From positions 2,144,001-2,208,000 of the forward strand of contig CP147779.1 in the NCBI GenBank assembly GCA_037308085.1: DNA of 64,000 nt. The letters are read 5' to 3'. The DNA comes from Promethearchaeati archaeon SRVP18_Atabeyarchaeia-1 (GTDB taxonomy: Archaea; Asgardarchaeota; Atabeyarchaeia; Atabeyarchaeales; Atabeyarchaeaceae). The translations under genes and the position numbers were made by a program. The notes under the pieces were generated by a model. That model worked only from the letters and a program-made list of their open reading frames with translations, was not told the origin of the DNA and did no database searches. Shown here piece by piece: positions 29,232 to 62,168 of the stretch. Within the stretch, counting starts at the first letter, position 1. Each line of letters starts with the position of its first letter.

Positions 29232-29360
29232 GGTTCTGTTATCTCTGCGGTTGATAACCGTTTGGGTTAACTTCTCCGCTCTGGCTCACCGCCTTATTTA
29301 GGGGTCGGATCACGGCTACATGTGCGGGGCGATCCAGCCTGAACCGCAGGCTTTCATCTT
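29232..29360 (-). ncRNA. Putative reRNA/omegaRNA scaffold overlapping the tnpB 3' end
   Basis: Hairpin AGCCTG-CGGTT-CAGGCT (29352-29336), whose GGTTC is complementary to the terminal GAACC; homologous to the MITE interior. 5' boundary approximate. Confidence 0.6.
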
Positions 29361-30465
29361 GGGTTTTGAGCAGGTTTAAGCAGGCGTTTACATGTCGATC
29401 TGTTCCGCACCATCCTAGGGTTTTCGCTTTCGGGTCTTGCATGATGCACCCACACACCGCGCAAATCCTAGAAGTGTTCCACGGACTGACTTTGACGGTT
29501 TGGACTCCCGCCCAGAGAGCCTTGTACTCGATGAAGCCCTGCAGCTTGCGGAAGCTCCACGAGTTCAACCTCCGCTTCAGTTTCCTGGAGTGTTTGCTTA
29601 TCTTCTGAATCCTCCCGTTGAAGCTGTTGACGCCCAAGACCTTCCTGTTAATCGCCCTGCGGATATGTCTAAGATCCTCGAGGATAATGCCTTGCTCCCT
29701 GGCTTTTGCTTGTCTAACTATCGCTGAACTCACCTGGTGCAGGACTGTGTTGACCTTGTTGTTCTGGTTGGTGAACCATCTTCTCTGAATCTTCTTGGCT
29801 ACCCGCTTGTCCTTAGCGTACTTGGCTTGAACCTTTCGTACACGCTCGAAGTATCCGTGCCTCGCCTCTGAAACCCTCTACAGATCGTGGCTTTCAATAG
29901 TTAGCTGTCCATCTTCTTTTGCGCTTGCTCCGTCCAACGAGCGTTCATTCGTGTCGTACGCGATGTAACCCTTTGGTTCGGCGACCTCAGCGGTCTTCGA
30001 GAAAACCAGCGAAACCGTGCAGGCAGCCAAGGACACTGAACCCAACTTGAGCGCGGCATCCGATAGGAACTGCGCAGCCCTCTTATGCAGGGGAACGTAG
30101 AAGTACTCTCTGGGCTTGATCGGTATTCTCAGTTTGCCGTCAACGAATCTGTAGGCCTGGTTTCCCAGTTTGGCCGTGAGTTTCTTGGCCCTCGGCGCTC
30201 TAACAATCCGGCGCCTTCTTTTCGCTTTCCGGTAGTTCTTCAGGATGGCGGTGGCAGCCTCGATGGCTGAGAGGCTTTACCAGGTGTGGAGACCGAAGCC
30301 GCTTAGCTGGTCGTACGTCTCGCTCTGCAGGCTGAGCCTGGAAGTTGCATTCCTCTCCAGGCCGACGCGGATGCAGTGGTTAACCATGGTTCTGAAGGTT
30401 TCAAGGAGGCTGAGAACACCACTTGTAGGCTCGTATGGTACCTGCACCGCTTTAACTGCCTGCAT
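29239..30465 (-). pseudogene. tnpB: TnpB/Cas12f-like RNA-guided nuclease (408 codons, two in-frame stops)
   Basis: Single frame from ATG 30465, with stops TAA 30277-30279 and TAG 29878-29880. RuvC-I YIAYDTNERS, RuvC-II IILEDL, WSFRKLQGFIEYKA, NTSRICAVCG, DRHVNACLNL. Confidence 0.92.
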
Positions 30466-30717
30466 AAAACTAAATAAGCCAAAAATCCCATTTAAACTCA
30501 CCAACCGCAGAGGTAACAGATCCCTTGCTCTGAAAAGAACGCTTTCTGAGACAGAGAAAGCTGGACATTCCGCACATATAGGCACGGACGCAATACGGAC
30601 TGCGATAGCGAAGGAAGAGTTGACGGATCCTTCTTGTTCACCTCGTTTCCTAGCCCCGCATTTGGATTGATTAATACGCACCTGAGGCGAGCCTCAAGCC
30701 AAGTTGGACCCCAGTAC

Positions 30718-52979: not shown

Positions 52980-54680
52980 TCACGGTTTGCCCGTCTTCTT
53001 CTTCTCTTCTTCTCTGAGAGGTCGCTTCAAGACTTTTCCAACTAGCGTCGTAGGTAGCTCTTTTCTGAATTCTATTTCCTTTGGGATCTTGTATGGGGCC
53101 ATTGACTTCTTAGCGAAATCAATGATGCTCTTCTTAGTTTCATCGTTTTCTGGAACGCCGGGTTTCAAGATTACGAACGCCTTCACAATTTCACTGCTGG
53201 GGTTCTTGGGGTCAGGTATTCCGACTGCTGCAGCCATAGCTACCTGGGGGTGTTCGAACAGCTTGTCATCAACTTCCCGAGGATAAACCTTGAAGCCACT
53301 AACGTCGATCATGTCCTTCTTTCTGTCAACAATGGTGAAGTACCCTTCTTCGTCCATCTTGGCTATGTCTCCTGTGAGCACCCATGGACCAGTCTCACCG
53401 ACGAGTTTGCTCTTCAGTTGGCTCTTTGTTTCCTCGGGCTTGTTCCAGTAGCCCTTCATGACTTGCGGGCCTCTGATGGCAAGTTCTCCTGGTTCGCCAA
53501 CGGGCATTAGCTTTGTTCCTGTCTCTATGTCAACTATTCTGCAATCAGTGTTTGGTATCGGCAGCCCGATTGAGCCTATTTTCCTGGTTTCCTTGTCTGG
53601 GTTTATGTGGGTTACTGGGCAGCACTCTGTCAGGCCGTACCCTTCAAGAATGGAGCCTCCGGTTACGTTTTCAAACTGCTTAATGACTTCTGGAGGCATT
53701 GGAGCTGCGCCAGAGTTGCACATTCTGATCGATTTGAGGTCTTCGTAGTACTTCTCTACACCCTTTGTCTGAAGCAGACGCATGTAGAGTGTTGGAACAC
53801 CTGGGAAGAAACTTGGCTTAGTGCTTTTGATCAATGAGAGTAGTGAGGCAAAGTCTCTTGCGTCAGGATTAAGAGCCATACAGTAGGCCATGCTGACGGA
53901 GGAGTTCATGCAGCAACTCATCCCGTAAATGTGGAATAGCGGTAAGTTGACCATGCATGTTTCTTTTCCTTCCTTTAGATCCCAAATGAACCAGTTTATT
54001 TGCTGCGTGGCATTCGCTACGAGGTTGTAGTGTGTGAGCATGGCGCCCTTCGGCACTCCTGTTGTTCCGCCTGTGTATTGCAGTGCCGCGATGTCTTCCT
54101 TCGGGTTGATCTTCACTCTGGGAGGATTCGGTTGATGGTCTGCTATTAGGTTTACCATCTGGTGAGCTCCTTCTTTTTCCTGAGCTCTCCGCGGTTTCCC
54201 GGGCAGGTAATCGACGAGTGATGCCACTATGACGTGTTTTAGTTGCGTTTCGTTCTTCACGCTGTTGACTATCTGGAGGGGTTGCCCGTCCATCGTGACA
54301 ATTGCGCTTGCCTGCGCGTCGTTCAGCTGGAACTTGACCTCAGGCGCAGTCAGCAAAGCGCTTATACAGGTCACCGCCGCGCCTGCTTTCATGGCTCCGT
54401 AGTACGCAATTATGAATTGGGGGAAGTTCGGTAAGTGTATCGCAACTACATCGCCCTTCTTGATACCCAAGTCTGCGAGAGCTGCCGCAAATCTGTCAAC
54501 GTGATCCTTGAGCTCTCTGTAGGATATCTTGCGCCCCATGAAATAGATCGCATTACTCTCAGGAAACTTCGCCGCCGTCCGGTCAAGCATCTCAGGGAGT
54601 GATATCTCTGGTATGTTCAGTTTCTCGGCTACTCCCTCATGGTAGTGTTTCAACCATGGTTTATCTGCATATGTCACCAA
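52980..54680 (-). CDS. fadD: Long-chain fatty acid--CoA ligase (paralog 1)
   Basis: QYTGGTTGVPKG, EGYGLTE, TGDIA, DRKKDMI, PTTLVGKVLK. Confidence 0.93.
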   Translation of the reverse strand: MVTYADKPWLKHYHEGVAEKLNIPEISLPEMLDRTAAKFPESNAIYFMGRKISYRELKDHVDRFAAALADLGIKKGDVVAIHLPNFPQFIIAYYGAMKAGAAVTCISALLTAPEVKFQLNDAQASAIVTMDGQPLQIVNSVKNETQLKHVIVASLVDYLPGKPRRAQEKEGAHQMVNLIADHQPNPPRVKINPKEDIAALQYTGGTTGVPKGAMLTHYNLVANATQQINWFIWDLKEGKETCMVNLPLFHIYGMSCCMNSSVSMAYCMALNPDARDFASLLSLIKSTKPSFFPGVPTLYMRLLQTKGVEKYYEDLKSIRMCNSGAAPMPPEVIKQFENVTGGSILEGYGLTECCPVTHINPDKETRKIGSIGLPIPNTDCRIVDIETGTKLMPVGEPGELAIRGPQVMKGYWNKPEETKSQLKSKLVGETGPWVLTGDIAKMDEEGYFTIVDRKKDMIDVSGFKVYPREVDDKLFEHPQVAMAAAVGIPDPKNPSSEIVKAFVILKPGVPENDETKKSIIDFAKKSMAPYKIPKEIEFRKELPTTLVGKVLKRPLREEEKKKTGKP

Positions 54681-54748
54681 TTCCTATTCCCTCTTTCCCT
54701 CGGTCTAGGACTGTATTCTATTCGACTACCTTATTGATCTCGTATATG

Positions 54749-55010
54749 GGTTCTGTCAAGTCTTCGGTAGGTGACTCGACTGGCTCGCATCGACTTTCAG
54801 GATTGCCTTTCCTTCTGTTCCGGGGGTTCCTGTACCATCGCCTCACCTGCGAGCCCCTTCAGGCCGAACCACAGCCCTGCGTCTGCTTCTACACGGGTTC
54901 TCCTTTCCCCTCCGCCTTCGGCTATAAAGCCACATACCGCGGAGCGGGGAGACTCTTAGGCTCACTATTCCGTTCCCAATATATAAATCAACCACAGACT
55001 TTACAGAGCC
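54749..55010 (-). mobile_element. MITE, 262 bp, carrying a TATA box and omegaRNA-like structure (copy 1, no TSD)
   Basis: Ends GGTTCTGTCAAGTCTTCGGT and ACCACAGACTTTACAGAGCC are 16/20 inverted; ~93% identical to 61592-61851 in opposite orientation. Confidence 0.88.
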
Positions 55011-55120
55011 GCCTATCCTAGGCTTTAAGAAGAGGGAATAGGTCGCCTGTCTCAGAGAGACGATCACCCAACGACATCAGGCTGGCTCAAAAGAAAAAGG
55101 TGGTATGGTTAGCACGCCAC

Positions 55121-56821
55121 TCATGGCTCTCCTGCTTTCTGCTTCTCTTCTTCCCTAATGTGTCTCTTCAGGACTTTGCCGACCAGGGTTGTTGGTAATT
55201 CTTTTCTGAATTCGATTTCCCTAGGAACCTTATACGGCGCGAGTTTTGTCTTGGCGAATTCGATGATGCTTCTTTTTGTTTCATCGTCCTCAGCAATGCC
55301 TGGCTTTACCACCACGAAGGCTTTGACCCGTTCGCTTCCTGGCGTCTTTGGATCTGGGACTCCGATTGCCGCTGCCATGGCAACAGATGGGTGTTCGAAG
55401 AGCACATCATCAACCTCACGTGGGTAGACTTTGAAGCCACTAACGTCGATCATGTCCTTCTTTCTGTCGACTATGTAGAAGAATCCGTCTTGGTCCATCT
55501 TCGCGATATCGCCAGTAAGCAGCCAGGGACCTAGATCGCCCGCAATCTCTTTTCTCAGCTGGTTCCTTGTCTCCTCAGGTTTATTCCAGTATCCCTTCAT
55601 TACCTGCGGGCCCTTGATCGCTAGCTCACCTGCTTCGCCGACTGGCATGAGTTTCGTTCCGGTTTCAATATCCACAATCCTGCAATCAGTGTCAGCTATC
55701 GGTGGTCCAATTGAGCCAATCTTTCTTCCCTCTTTTGAGGGGCTGATGTGCGTGGCGGGGCAAGTCTCAGTTAGTCCGTAGGCTTCGAGGACAGTTCCTC
55801 CTGTTGTTTGCTCGAATTGCTTCATGACCTCAGGCGGCATAGGCGCTGCACCAGACAAGCAGATCTTGATAGACTTCAAGTCATCGTAGTACTTCTCCAC
55901 ACCTTTGACCTGAAGCAGTCGCATGTATACTGTGGGAACCCCTGGGAAGAAACTGGGCTTCGTGCTTCTTATTATGGAGAGTAGCGAAGGGAGGTCCCTT
56001 GGATCTGGGTTGAGTGCCATGCACCAACCGAAGGCGACTGGAGCATTCATGCAGGCTGTCATAGCATATATGTGGAACAATGGTAAATTGACTACGCCCG
56101 TCTCTTTTCCGAATTCGTAGAACCAGCTGATCCATGAAATTGCCTGTGTTGCATTAGCAACGAGGTTACGGTGTGTGAGCATAGCGCCTTTTGGTATTCC
56201 TGTTGTTCCGCCTGTGTACTGTAGCACTGCGACTTCTTCTTTTGGATCGATCTTGAACTTCGGTGGATTTGGTTGATGGTCTGTTATGAGATTTAGAAAC
56301 TGCTTTGTTCCTTCTTTCTCTGCTGGTCTCCTAGGTTTTCCAGGGAGGTAGTCCATCAAGGCTGTGACAATGACATGTTGTAGTTTGGTTTCGCTTCTGA
56401 TGCTGTTGACTACTTGGAGTGGTGCACCATCCATTGTGACTATGGCTTTCGCCCCAGAGTCGTTCAACTGAAACTTGACCTCTGGTGGGGTGAGGAGCGC
56501 GCTTACGCAAGTCACCCTTGCGCCCGCCTTCAAGGCAGCGTAGTATGCTATGATGAACTGAGGCAGGTTTGGCAAGTGTATTGCGACCACGTCGCCTCTC
56601 TTGATGCCCAACTCTACTAGAGCGGTTGCCAATCGATCTACGTTGTCCTTCAATTCCCTGTAGGGGATCTTTCTTCCCATGAACCAGATCGCATTGTTAT
56701 CTGGAATCTTGGCCGCAGTTCGATCCAACATCTCTGGAATAGAAATCTCAGGAATATCCACATGCGTAGGCACTCCCTCGTGATAGTGCTTCAACCATGG
56801 TTTGTCTGCATATGTCACCAA
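55121..56821 (-). CDS. fadD: Long-chain fatty acid--CoA ligase (paralog 2, tandem duplicate)
   Basis: Same length (566 aa) and motifs as 52980-54680. Confidence 0.93.
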   Translation of the reverse strand: MVTYADKPWLKHYHEGVPTHVDIPEISIPEMLDRTAAKIPDNNAIWFMGRKIPYRELKDNVDRLATALVELGIKRGDVVAIHLPNLPQFIIAYYAALKAGARVTCVSALLTPPEVKFQLNDSGAKAIVTMDGAPLQVVNSIRSETKLQHVIVTALMDYLPGKPRRPAEKEGTKQFLNLITDHQPNPPKFKIDPKEEVAVLQYTGGTTGIPKGAMLTHRNLVANATQAISWISWFYEFGKETGVVNLPLFHIYAMTACMNAPVAFGWCMALNPDPRDLPSLLSIIRSTKPSFFPGVPTVYMRLLQVKGVEKYYDDLKSIKICLSGAAPMPPEVMKQFEQTTGGTVLEAYGLTETCPATHISPSKEGRKIGSIGPPIADTDCRIVDIETGTKLMPVGEAGELAIKGPQVMKGYWNKPEETRNQLRKEIAGDLGPWLLTGDIAKMDQDGFFYIVDRKKDMIDVSGFKVYPREVDDVLFEHPSVAMAAAIGVPDPKTPGSERVKAFVVVKPGIAEDDETKRSIIEFAKTKLAPYKVPREIEFRKELPTTLVGKVLKRHIREEEKQKAGEP

Positions 56822-61502: not shown

Positions 61503-61591
61503 CTCAGTACCACCACTATGCAATAACCAAGTATGACATTGTTCCTGCGTGAGGTTTAATGCCCACTTATCAGATATACTTTACTTAACTC

Positions 61592-61851
61592 GGCTCTGTG
61601 AAGCCAGTGGTTGATTTATATTGGGAACGGAATATTGATTCCAAGAATCTCCCCGCTCCGCGGTATGTGGCTTTATAGCCGAAGGCGGAGGGGAAAGGAG
61701 AACACGTGTAGAAGCAGGCGCAGGGCTGTGGTTCGGCCTGAAGGGACTCGCAGGTGAGGCGATGGTACAGGAACCCCCGGAACAGAAGGAAAGGCAATCC
61801 TGAAAGTCGATGCGAGCCAGCCAAGCCATCAACCGAAGACTTGGCAGAACC
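61592..61851 (+). mobile_element. MITE, 260 bp, carrying a TATA box and omegaRNA-like structure (copy 2, perfect 8-bp TSD)
   Basis: Ends GGCTCTGTGAAG... and ...CTTGGCAGAACC; CTTAACTC duplicated at 61584-61591 and 61852-61859. Confidence 0.92.
61648..61851 (+). ncRNA. Putative stand-alone TnpB-type guide RNA scaffold
   Basis: TTTATA box at 61615-61620. Stems CTCCGC/GCGGAG, GGCT/AGCC, GGGCTG/CGGCCT, CTCGCA/TGCGAG and CAGGA/TCCTG. GGTTC (61730-61734) is complementary to the terminal GAACC (61847-61851). Confidence 0.6.
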
Positions 61852-62168
61852 CTTAACTCCGCGTGGGCACAGAAAGCGCCGGCGCCCCTTTTCCCTAGGA
61901 ACTATTTGAATTCGCGGTCGTTCCGTTGCTCTCCTCTCCTCCAACACCTGCTGGGTAGTCTTGCCCGAGATCAGACCCACGCCTCGGCTCTCCAATTCCG
62001 CCTTTTTCTCTACTGATGAAACTTGCACTTCACTTTAGGTGATCATGCCCGCCGGTTTCTTGTGAAACTCACAAAAAATTGTTGCGAATATCGTGAGACC
62101 ACCATCAACCTTATAAGAGGAGATCTTGAGATGAACGATTAGGAATATAATAGGAGAGAAAATGGGGA

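Follow-up and report, generated by a model that had tools for sequence, protein, structure and literature searches.

Gene-less miniatures of tnpB-bearing transposons are known as palindrome-associated transposable elements (PATEs), a concept that goes back to Dyall-Smith et al. 2011 (PMC3119063), and PATEs "often encode omegaRNAs" that would need TnpB in trans (Meers et al. 2023, doi 10.1101/2023.03.14.532601). IS200/IS605 and IS607 elements have neither inverted repeats nor target duplications (PMC3119063; PMC6188088). Another survey describes six DDE-associated TnpB branches with inverted terminal repeats, together with solo TnpBs whose ends match (Altae-Tran et al. 2023, PMC10691335). Among DDE transposons, the IS26-type elements of the IS6 family move via copy-in cointegrate formation (PMC6807381); archaeal IS6 members are distant, and archaeal "IS6" elements may fall outside the family (Harmer and Hall 2019, PMC6807381). 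Here we describe a miniature inverted-repeat transposable element (MITE) found in two copies in a 64,000-nucleotide stretch (the window) of the genome of Promethearchaeati archaeon SRVP18_Atabeyarchaeia-1, a single 2.81-Mb contig (CP147779.1) of which the window comprises bases 2144001-2208000. The text of the Atabeyarchaeia genome paper lists five IS-like transposons and 18 integrated elements of 1.3 to 40 kb (Valentin-Alvarado et al. 2024, PMC11529989) and, like that of its preprint, has nothing on TnpB, MITEs or inverted repeats. Our literature search found no link of TnpB to IS6-like ends and no omegaRNA-only MITE of a DDE-type carrier.

From sequence comparison, the MITEs are probably non-autonomous miniatures of tnpB transposons that arose by internal deletion and supply guide RNAs to TnpB made elsewhere. 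An earlier note on this DNA had read the two window copies as mobile cassettes consisting of a promoter and an omegaRNA, each creating a new guide at its insertion site. That reading holds up as regards a gene-less miniature with a structured, covarying RNA, and intact cognate TnpB genes and a flank rule agree with it; corrections concern the type of transposase implied, the idea of a guide repertoire and the precedent for the concept.

The two ~260-bp copies lie where the earlier note placed them and can be aligned over their full length, but the genome holds seven copies in total (257-269 bp) rather than two. Four of these are 87 to 100% alike and the other three 73 to 76%. Common to all seven are a left repeat, an adjoining TATA-like box, a spacer, a hairpin, a variable linker and the same 3′ ~135 nt, for which one common origin is the simplest reading. 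The elements are short, non-coding and multi-copy and end in 23-bp inverted repeats, as MITEs do. No reading frame is open in all seven copies on either strand, so that the 147-aa and 140-aa open reading frames (ORFs) overlapping the window copies are spurious; neither of them has a Pfam match, and a protein product of the MITE is thereby ruled out. We found no copies in a second genome of the same genus (G001) or in one of the sister genus (G002), and a degenerate 21-nt pattern (left end plus TATA-like box) returned six matches from metagenomes, all of them chance matches and none a MITE relative.

The origin of the 3′ part of the element can be traced to a family of tnpB-bearing transposons. 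MITE positions 126-260 share 71 to 77% identity with the DNA directly 3′ of the TnpB zinc ribbon at four tnpB loci and correspond to the 3′ ends of what we term B-type tnpB elements, which bears out the alignment to a tnpB 3′ end that had been proposed for the MITE interior. The TnpB-tail-like stretch reported there is likewise real: it reads GLWFGLKGLAGEAMVQEP and matches the C-terminal tail ...GLRFSLKGVAGEAVKGNPE... of B-type TnpB. A repeat-motif scan of the genome recovered at least 13 tnpB-bearing elements with the same kind of 23-bp inverted repeats (about twelve measuring 1.23-1.30 kb, plus a 966-bp deletion derivative), most of them flanked by 8-bp duplications that match at 8/8 or 7/8 positions. 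Their inverted repeats fall into three subtypes (A, B and C), and the tnpB frame fills nearly the whole parent element, its stop lying 7 bp from the right end. Since IS200/IS605 and IS607 elements lack inverted repeats and duplications, these tnpB elements represent a different carrier type. The architecture is not confined to this genome: in a simple scan, 15 of 50 related tnpB loci (from Nitrososphaerota, Bathyarchaeia, Thermoproteota and two other Atabeyarchaeia genomes) display it, most of the 15 with a matching 8-bp duplication. The window itself contains an A-type member whose tnpB is degraded to a 212-aa open frame.

Other deletion derivatives of such elements exist. The 966-bp form (genome 1254037-1255002) is a single-copy B-type internal-deletion derivative from which most of the scaffold is gone, and a 733-bp A-type internal-deletion derivative (genome 2135115-2135847) has both ends but no recognisable duplication. 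A degenerate B-type derivative of ~365 bp (genome 2751691-2752055; covariance-model match of 51 bits, see below) still has the 3′ scaffold, ~100 nt from the 5′ part of the tnpB coding sequence and a remnant of the left end, and constitutes a second, independent miniature without amplification. Outside this genome, a "Ca. Nitrosotenuis" metagenome-assembled genome (MAG) carries a 586-bp deletion derivative of a related tnpB element (L092:1895-2480) that keeps N-terminal codons and the scaffold, with inverted repeats matching at 15/24 positions, a 7/8 duplication and CTTT at the motif position discussed below.

The stretch shared by MITEs and tnpB 3′ ends forms a structured RNA. An alignment of the seven MITEs with eight tnpB 3′ ends has 27-30 consensus pairs, at which 97.1% of cells can pair, against 23 to 43% when the partners are slid by 1 to 3 columns; nine pairs are changed on both sides, and none of 500 shuffles reaches the observed score. 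Covariation had been named as a check on the copies, and it is present in the MITEs alone, with 96% of cells pairing and eight pairs changed in compensatory fashion on both sides. Many of the pairs are G-U, workable only on the tnpB sense strand, which indicates that the RNA is read in the tnpB sense. The structure extends into the transposon end: eight bases inside the right repeat pair with eight bases just upstream, and this terminal hairpin covaries with the repeat subtype (copy 2, for instance, has C-G where copy 1 has U-A).

Differences between copies are distributed in keeping with this structure. Window copies 1 and 2 differ by eight substitutions and a 2-nt indel at positions 1-56, by three substitutions at positions 57-229 and by six at positions 230-260; the earlier note's contrast of three differences in ~173 core positions with ~14 in the termini is thus exact (3/173 versus 14/87; Fisher's exact p = 2.7e-5), and some of the differences in the termini trace to covariation in the terminal hairpin. 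In the four close MITEs, divergence is ~5% in the scaffold and 5′ hairpin but 16 to 27% in the spacer, linker and left repeat, and the right repeat, which is also the RNA 3′ end, is the best-kept end. Selection on the RNA, suggested before from the two window copies, is thus supported by the compensatory changes among the MITEs and by a divergence that spares the scaffold.

A covariance model (R1) built from the first alignment recovers its 11 training sites in this genome and, beyond these, the A- and C-type tnpB 3′ ends and a single new site, the ~365-bp derivative; matches in the parent elements cover their last ~150 nt. In related tnpB loci of other archaea (Nitrososphaerota, Bathyarchaeia, Thermoplasmata and other archaeal MAGs), R1 yields 56 matches, nearly all at the tnpB 3′ end, and in their alignment 90.9% of cells pair and 26 of the 30 pairs are changed on both sides, counts that are inflated because the alignment was fitted to the model. 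Matches in G001 and G002 are all linked to tnpB, with the exception of one solo scaffold with a right-end remnant at a contig end (L112:669-790, G001 contig C248), which lies directly 3′ of a small hicA-like ORF and shows neither a left end nor tnpB. Rfam has no match to the window at gathering thresholds, nor to the MITE at E values up to 10; the scaffold is therefore not part of any curated RNA family. In the parent elements the RNA overlaps the end of the tnpB ORF and runs to the right end of the transposon, as is characteristic of an omegaRNA, and the MITE keeps this stretch, which in copy 2 takes in the right inverted repeat and what is left of the codons for the TnpB C terminus. The 3′ part of the MITE is a conserved structured RNA of the 3′ end of this TnpB clade, present in several archaeal lineages.

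Upstream of the scaffold, both the TTTATA box and the strongly paired interior claimed for the MITE were found. The left repeat is directly followed by TTTATAT(A) (box 1), at the position where A-type elements have a TTTAAATA box ~26 nt before the tnpB ATG. Farther inside, the 5′ hairpin has its homologue in the B-type elements of this genome, in the stretch that leads from their left end to the ATG and contains their TATA-like box (box 2 in the MITE). Because box 2 is destroyed in two of the seven MITEs while the surrounding stem is kept through compensatory and G-U changes, we favour box 1 as the putative promoter and the hairpin as a likely part of the RNA. The predicted transcript would comprise ~205 nt with box 1 as the promoter and ~150 nt with box 2, in each case followed by the guide.

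The ends of the MITEs, and the sequence next to them, resemble those of the tnpB elements. The left and right repeats of copy 2 are identical at 16 of 23 positions, and its right repeat agrees with an end of the window tnpB element at ~18/23, close to the 19/24 claimed previously. The perfect 8-bp duplication (CTTAACTC) reported for copy 2 is present on both sides, and copy 1 has no recognisable duplication at its flanks; overall, 8-bp duplications are found at five of the seven MITEs (with at most one mismatch in three of them and a 1-nt shift in the other two). When 35 elements were oriented by their tnpB or scaffold, the four bases immediately 5′ of the left duplication proved to be YTTR in most of them (T at -11 in 28/35, T at -10 in 29/35 and a purine at -9 in 27/35). 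TTR occupies -11 to -9 in 20 of the 35 elements and occurs at most four times at any other offset (binomial p~2e-22 against the genome background), and the right side shows no mirror of the motif. The MITEs keep this rule exactly in 4/7 cases and in 6/7 if a 1-nt shift is allowed. A symmetric preference of the transposase should produce a palindromic pattern, so the one-sidedness of YTTR must be explained otherwise; a guide consisting of the right copy of the duplication and the flank beyond it would be expected to give such a pattern. The position of YTTR fits the place at which the target-adjacent motif (TAM) of TnpB must lie under such an arrangement. In oriented tnpB elements (for example, that of the window and locus L013:272-1532), the two ends are unequally kept: the right end, downstream of tnpB and on the guide side, is almost always ...CAGAACC, and the left end, often starting with CG, AG or GGA, is more degenerate. 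The better-kept right end fits a double duty as transposase site and RNA 3′ end. Coordinates of these features are collected in Table 1.

Table 1. Features of the MITEs, the tnpB element and the transposase-bearing transposons (window positions unless marked as genome positions)
Feature	Position	Strand	Remarks
MITE copy 2, whole element (260 bp)	61592-61851	+	end-to-end alignment; one of seven genome copies
TAM-like motif TTTA	61580-61583	+	directly 5′ of left duplication of copy 2
Left 8-bp target-site duplication of copy 2, CTTAACTC	61584-61591	+	8/8 match
Left terminal inverted repeat of copy 2, GGCTCTG...GGTTGA	61592-61614	+	23 bp
TATA-like box 1, TTTATATT	61615-61622	+	just inside left repeat; in 7/7 copies; candidate promoter
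5′ hairpin	61649-61693	+	homologous to B-type tnpB promoter region
TATA-like box 2, TTTATA	61673-61678	+	in inner loop of hairpin
OmegaRNA-like scaffold	61700-61851	+	covariance model R1 match, 161 bits
Right inverted repeat of copy 2	61829-61851	+	within scaffold segment
Right 8-bp duplication of copy 2, CTTAACTC	61852-61859	+
Predicted guide (right duplication copy plus right flank)	61852-61875	+	inferred from position of TAM-like motif
MITE copy 1 (262 bp)	54749-55010	-	end-to-end alignment with copy 2
Right repeat of copy 1	54749-54771	-
Scaffold of copy 1	54749-54900	-
Left repeat of copy 1	54988-55010	-
A-type tnpB-only element	29232-30523	-	23-bp inverted repeats; 7/8 duplication
3′ scaffold of A-type element	29232-29375	-
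Cargo transposon, 4.4 kb	genome 614149-618567 (L012:250-4668)		64-bp inverted ends; duplication 7/8
Cargo transposon, 6.55 kb	genome 549276-555829 (L104:277-6830)		repeated end motifs; duplication 8/8 (TGGAGAAC)

A TnpB encoded elsewhere, as the proposed use of the MITE RNA implies, is available in the same genome, where three B-type TnpBs (400-410 aa) are intact: the RuvC D, E and D positions and the zinc ribbon are conserved in each, and all three score above the NCBIfam guided_TnpB cut-off. One of them, of 400 aa, is encoded at genome 1697622-1698824. The further idea that the scattered copies, each fused to a new flank, provide a dispersed repertoire of guides stands only in part: YTTR followed by the duplication fits a guide read from the flank, but the predicted guides of the seven MITEs match their own insertion sites and no second target in the genome, other matches to the 24-nt flanks being at chance level (14-18 nt). 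A repertoire directed against other loci of this genome is thus ruled out. Guides that match only their own site fit instead the homing or retention logic of Meers et al. 2023.

As a source of mobility, two IS240-type DDE genes (the only ones in the genome) come into question, with scores of 63.7 and 65.4 bits against Pfam PF13610 (cut-off, 27) and the IS6 family model as their best NCBIfam match. Each resides in a cargo transposon with the end motif of the MITEs and, like them, with 8-bp duplications, and the ends start with GG, as in IS6/IS26 elements. The ends of the 4.4-kb transposon are 64 bp long and repeat the end motif 2-3 times in tandem; between them lie the gene for a 251-aa IS6-like transposase, an HxlR-type winged-helix gene and several ORFs mostly without a clear Pfam match. 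Its 6.55-kb counterpart has a 383-aa transposase combining an N-terminal SWIM zinc finger with the IS240 DDE domain, along with a 995-aa Eco57I/MmeI-like type IIG restriction-modification fusion; neither transposon has a PF07282 match. An IS6-like DDE transposase, and not IS200/IS605 chemistry, is the source of mobility to which the inverted repeats and 8-bp duplications point, and we infer that such an enzyme mobilises the MITE in trans.

Taken together, these observations suggest a mechanism in which tnpB-only transposons with ~23-bp inverted repeats and 8-bp duplications would have given rise to the 260-bp MITE by internal deletion. Each MITE retains both inverted repeats, a TATA-like box, a 5′ hairpin from the parental promoter region and the last ~150 nt of the parent, which form the putative omegaRNA scaffold of the TnpB clade and stop precisely where the right inverted repeat does. 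A DDE transposase of IS6-like type, encoded at another locus of the genome, would move the MITE and create the 8-bp duplication, after which transcription from the internal promoter would run through the scaffold into the right flank, so that the guide would consist of the duplication and the flank. TnpB from intact B-type elements elsewhere could then load the MITE RNA. An unoccupied allele, in which YTTR precedes the duplication sequence and the right flank, would present a TAM with a full guide match and be cut, and repair from the occupied copy would result in homing or retention, as shown for IS605 TnpB. The occupied allele, matching the guide for only 8 nt after the TAM, would escape cutting.

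Both window copies lie close to genes predicted to function in fatty-acid metabolism. Copy 1 sits in the spacer between two tandem paralogous AMP-binding (acyl-CoA synthetase-like) genes (window 52980-56821), ~70 nt upstream of the start of an AMP-binding enzyme and in the same orientation as this downstream gene. The sister-genus genome G002 has the same tandem AMP-binding pair with a spacer of 190 nt that aligns on both sides of copy 1 and is without the element. Copy 2 lies 90 nt upstream of the ATG of an acyl-CoA dehydrogenase gene, in the opposite orientation. At the copy 2 locus, gene order is conserved in G001 and the intergenic DNA is not alignable, and an exact-pattern scan of JGI metagenome contigs with the reconstructed empty site returned nothing. 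The only other contig with the neighbouring acyl-CoA dehydrogenase (Logan, SRR28200043) has the occupied allele and ends inside the MITE.

Several observations weigh against the MITEs being guide-supplying miniatures mobilised by an IS6-like enzyme. On the side of the carrier, no element here contains both tnpB and a DDE gene; the match to the IS6 model NCBIfam NF033587 reaches 116 bits at full coverage, below the cut-off of 125; and it is not obvious how the copy-in cointegrate route would move a MITE in trans or leave a donor site empty. On the side of the RNA, the MITE ends are of the "GTCAAGTC" subtype and the scaffold is B-type, so that the cognate TnpB is assigned from the nucleotide similarity of 71 to 77% only; two boxes compete as the promoter, one of them lost in two copies; and the broader alignment, as noted above, overstates its paired changes. 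Finally, with no empty copy 2 allele found, no natural guide target is documented. If no RNA is made or used, the MITE would be an inert deletion derivative hitch-hiking on a transposase, its structure simply inherited from the tnpB parent. We consider this the less likely account, despite the fact that deletions of several sizes exist (733, 966 and ~365 bp in this genome and 586 bp in the Nitrosotenuis MAG) and that part of the conservation among the four close copies reflects recency. Copies that are ~25% divergent still retain the pairing and the compensatory changes described above, and what has diverged is the spacer, the linker and the left repeat, whereas the scaffold, though dispensable for transposition, is spared. 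Moreover, the scaffold-poor 966-bp form is single-copy while the form with promoter and scaffold has reached seven copies (a small sample), and the MITEs keep the one-sided YTTR rule.

An RNA with a different role is less probable still: it might titrate TnpB as a decoy and in this way curb cutting by the full-length elements, or act in cis on neighbouring genes as a small RNA. In favour of such a role, both window copies are located 70-90 nt upstream of fatty-acid-metabolism gene starts, and the 5′ hairpin, specific to the MITEs, is without an equivalent in the core of the covariance model. All helices of the clade's 3′ RNA are kept up to the flank, however, as a working guide RNA needs; what stands before the guide match in the occupied allele is the repeat end instead of YTTR, so TnpB should not bind the neighbouring DNA; and copies 1 and 2 have opposite orientations relative to their downstream genes. 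That the MITE is a PATE of IS200/IS605 type, moved by a Y1 TnpA through single-strand "peel and paste," is very improbable. The genome does have three Y1 TnpA genes, and omegaRNA-bearing PATEs are a published precedent, but these enzymes are unfit for the MITE ends, which are ~23-bp inverted repeats rather than subterminal palindromes, and the 8-bp duplications at five of seven MITEs and at most parents do not occur in IS200/IS605 elements. Membership in the IS200/IS605 PATEs is thus contradicted by both features. The reading of the MITEs as guide-supplying tnpB miniatures accordingly remains the one we prefer. A more speculative extension, which we regard as doubtful, concerns the placement of YTTR one duplication length from the left end, a rule that holds for tnpB elements and MITEs across several archaeal lineages: target choice by the DDE enzyme might be coupled to TAM recognition by TnpB, or, driven by TnpB homing, only those insertions that lie next to a TAM in the right orientation might persist, and in either case the MITEs could be guide-only parasites that borrow both machines. 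If so, they would be small gene drives in polyploid Asgard cells.

With tnpB gone, the MITE scaffold is free of coding constraint, and the copies offer a natural test of selection on the RNA alone. The MITE may also represent a naturally minimal cassette of promoter and scaffold for this clade of archaeal TnpBs, the promoter being a predicted one. For an uncharacterised clade in Asgard, Nitrososphaerota and Bathyarchaeia genomes, the analysis provides a predicted TAM (YTTR) and a predicted start of the guide (the duplication). If confirmed, homing or retention by TnpB would extend from the peel-and-paste IS605 elements to transposons with inverted repeats that make duplications, and TnpB carriers with inverted repeats are in the same situation as the eukaryotic Fanzor carriers.

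Each of the known systems shares some of these properties. PATEs, like this MITE, are tnpB elements reduced to gene-less miniatures in which the transposon ends and the guide-RNA scaffold survive; both would need TnpB in trans and would take their guide from the DNA beyond the right end. They differ in having subterminal palindromes, no inverted repeats or duplication, and mobilisation by Y1 TnpA, in contrast to the 23-bp inverted repeats and 8-bp duplications found here, and their target motif abuts the left end, whereas the TAM-like motif of the MITE lies one duplication length (8 bp) away from it. The DDE-associated TnpBs, as presented in the available part of Altae-Tran et al. 2023, also lie inside symmetric inverted ends; their solo tnpB elements have the ends of elements that carry a transposase, and little sequence separates the tnpB 3′ end from the end of the transposon. 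That part of the paper names only IS630 among the six DDE branches, and the candidate partner here is IS6-like; it places tnpB and the DDE gene within one element, whereas here we see only solo TnpBs with matching ends; and it describes no protein-less omegaRNA miniature of a DDE-type carrier. The archaeal clades of IS6/IS26 (PMC6807381) likewise have GG ends, an end consensus of ~18 bp or more, an 8-bp duplication and an IS240-type DDE transposase, but they are ~0.8-kb single-gene elements, in contrast with the 4.4-kb and 6.55-kb cargo transposons of this genome and their 2-3 tandem end motifs. The Sulfolobus MITEs SM and SMN1 (PMC3718332) resemble the present elements in being short, non-coding and multi-copy, with inverted repeats, duplications and an autonomous relative acting in trans; unlike in these classical archaeal MITEs, the interior here is a structured RNA that is shared with nuclease genes and shows compensatory changes. 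An omegaRNA-only, non-autonomous element served by TnpB in trans, as the earlier note proposed, is the best explanation for the MITE, although as a concept it has been published for IS605 PATEs. PATEs with an omegaRNA are on record, as are DDE-linked TnpBs whose ends are inverted repeats, and what the MITE adds to these two known things is an omegaRNA-only miniature with inverted repeats and 8-bp duplications, probably of a DDE-type carrier.

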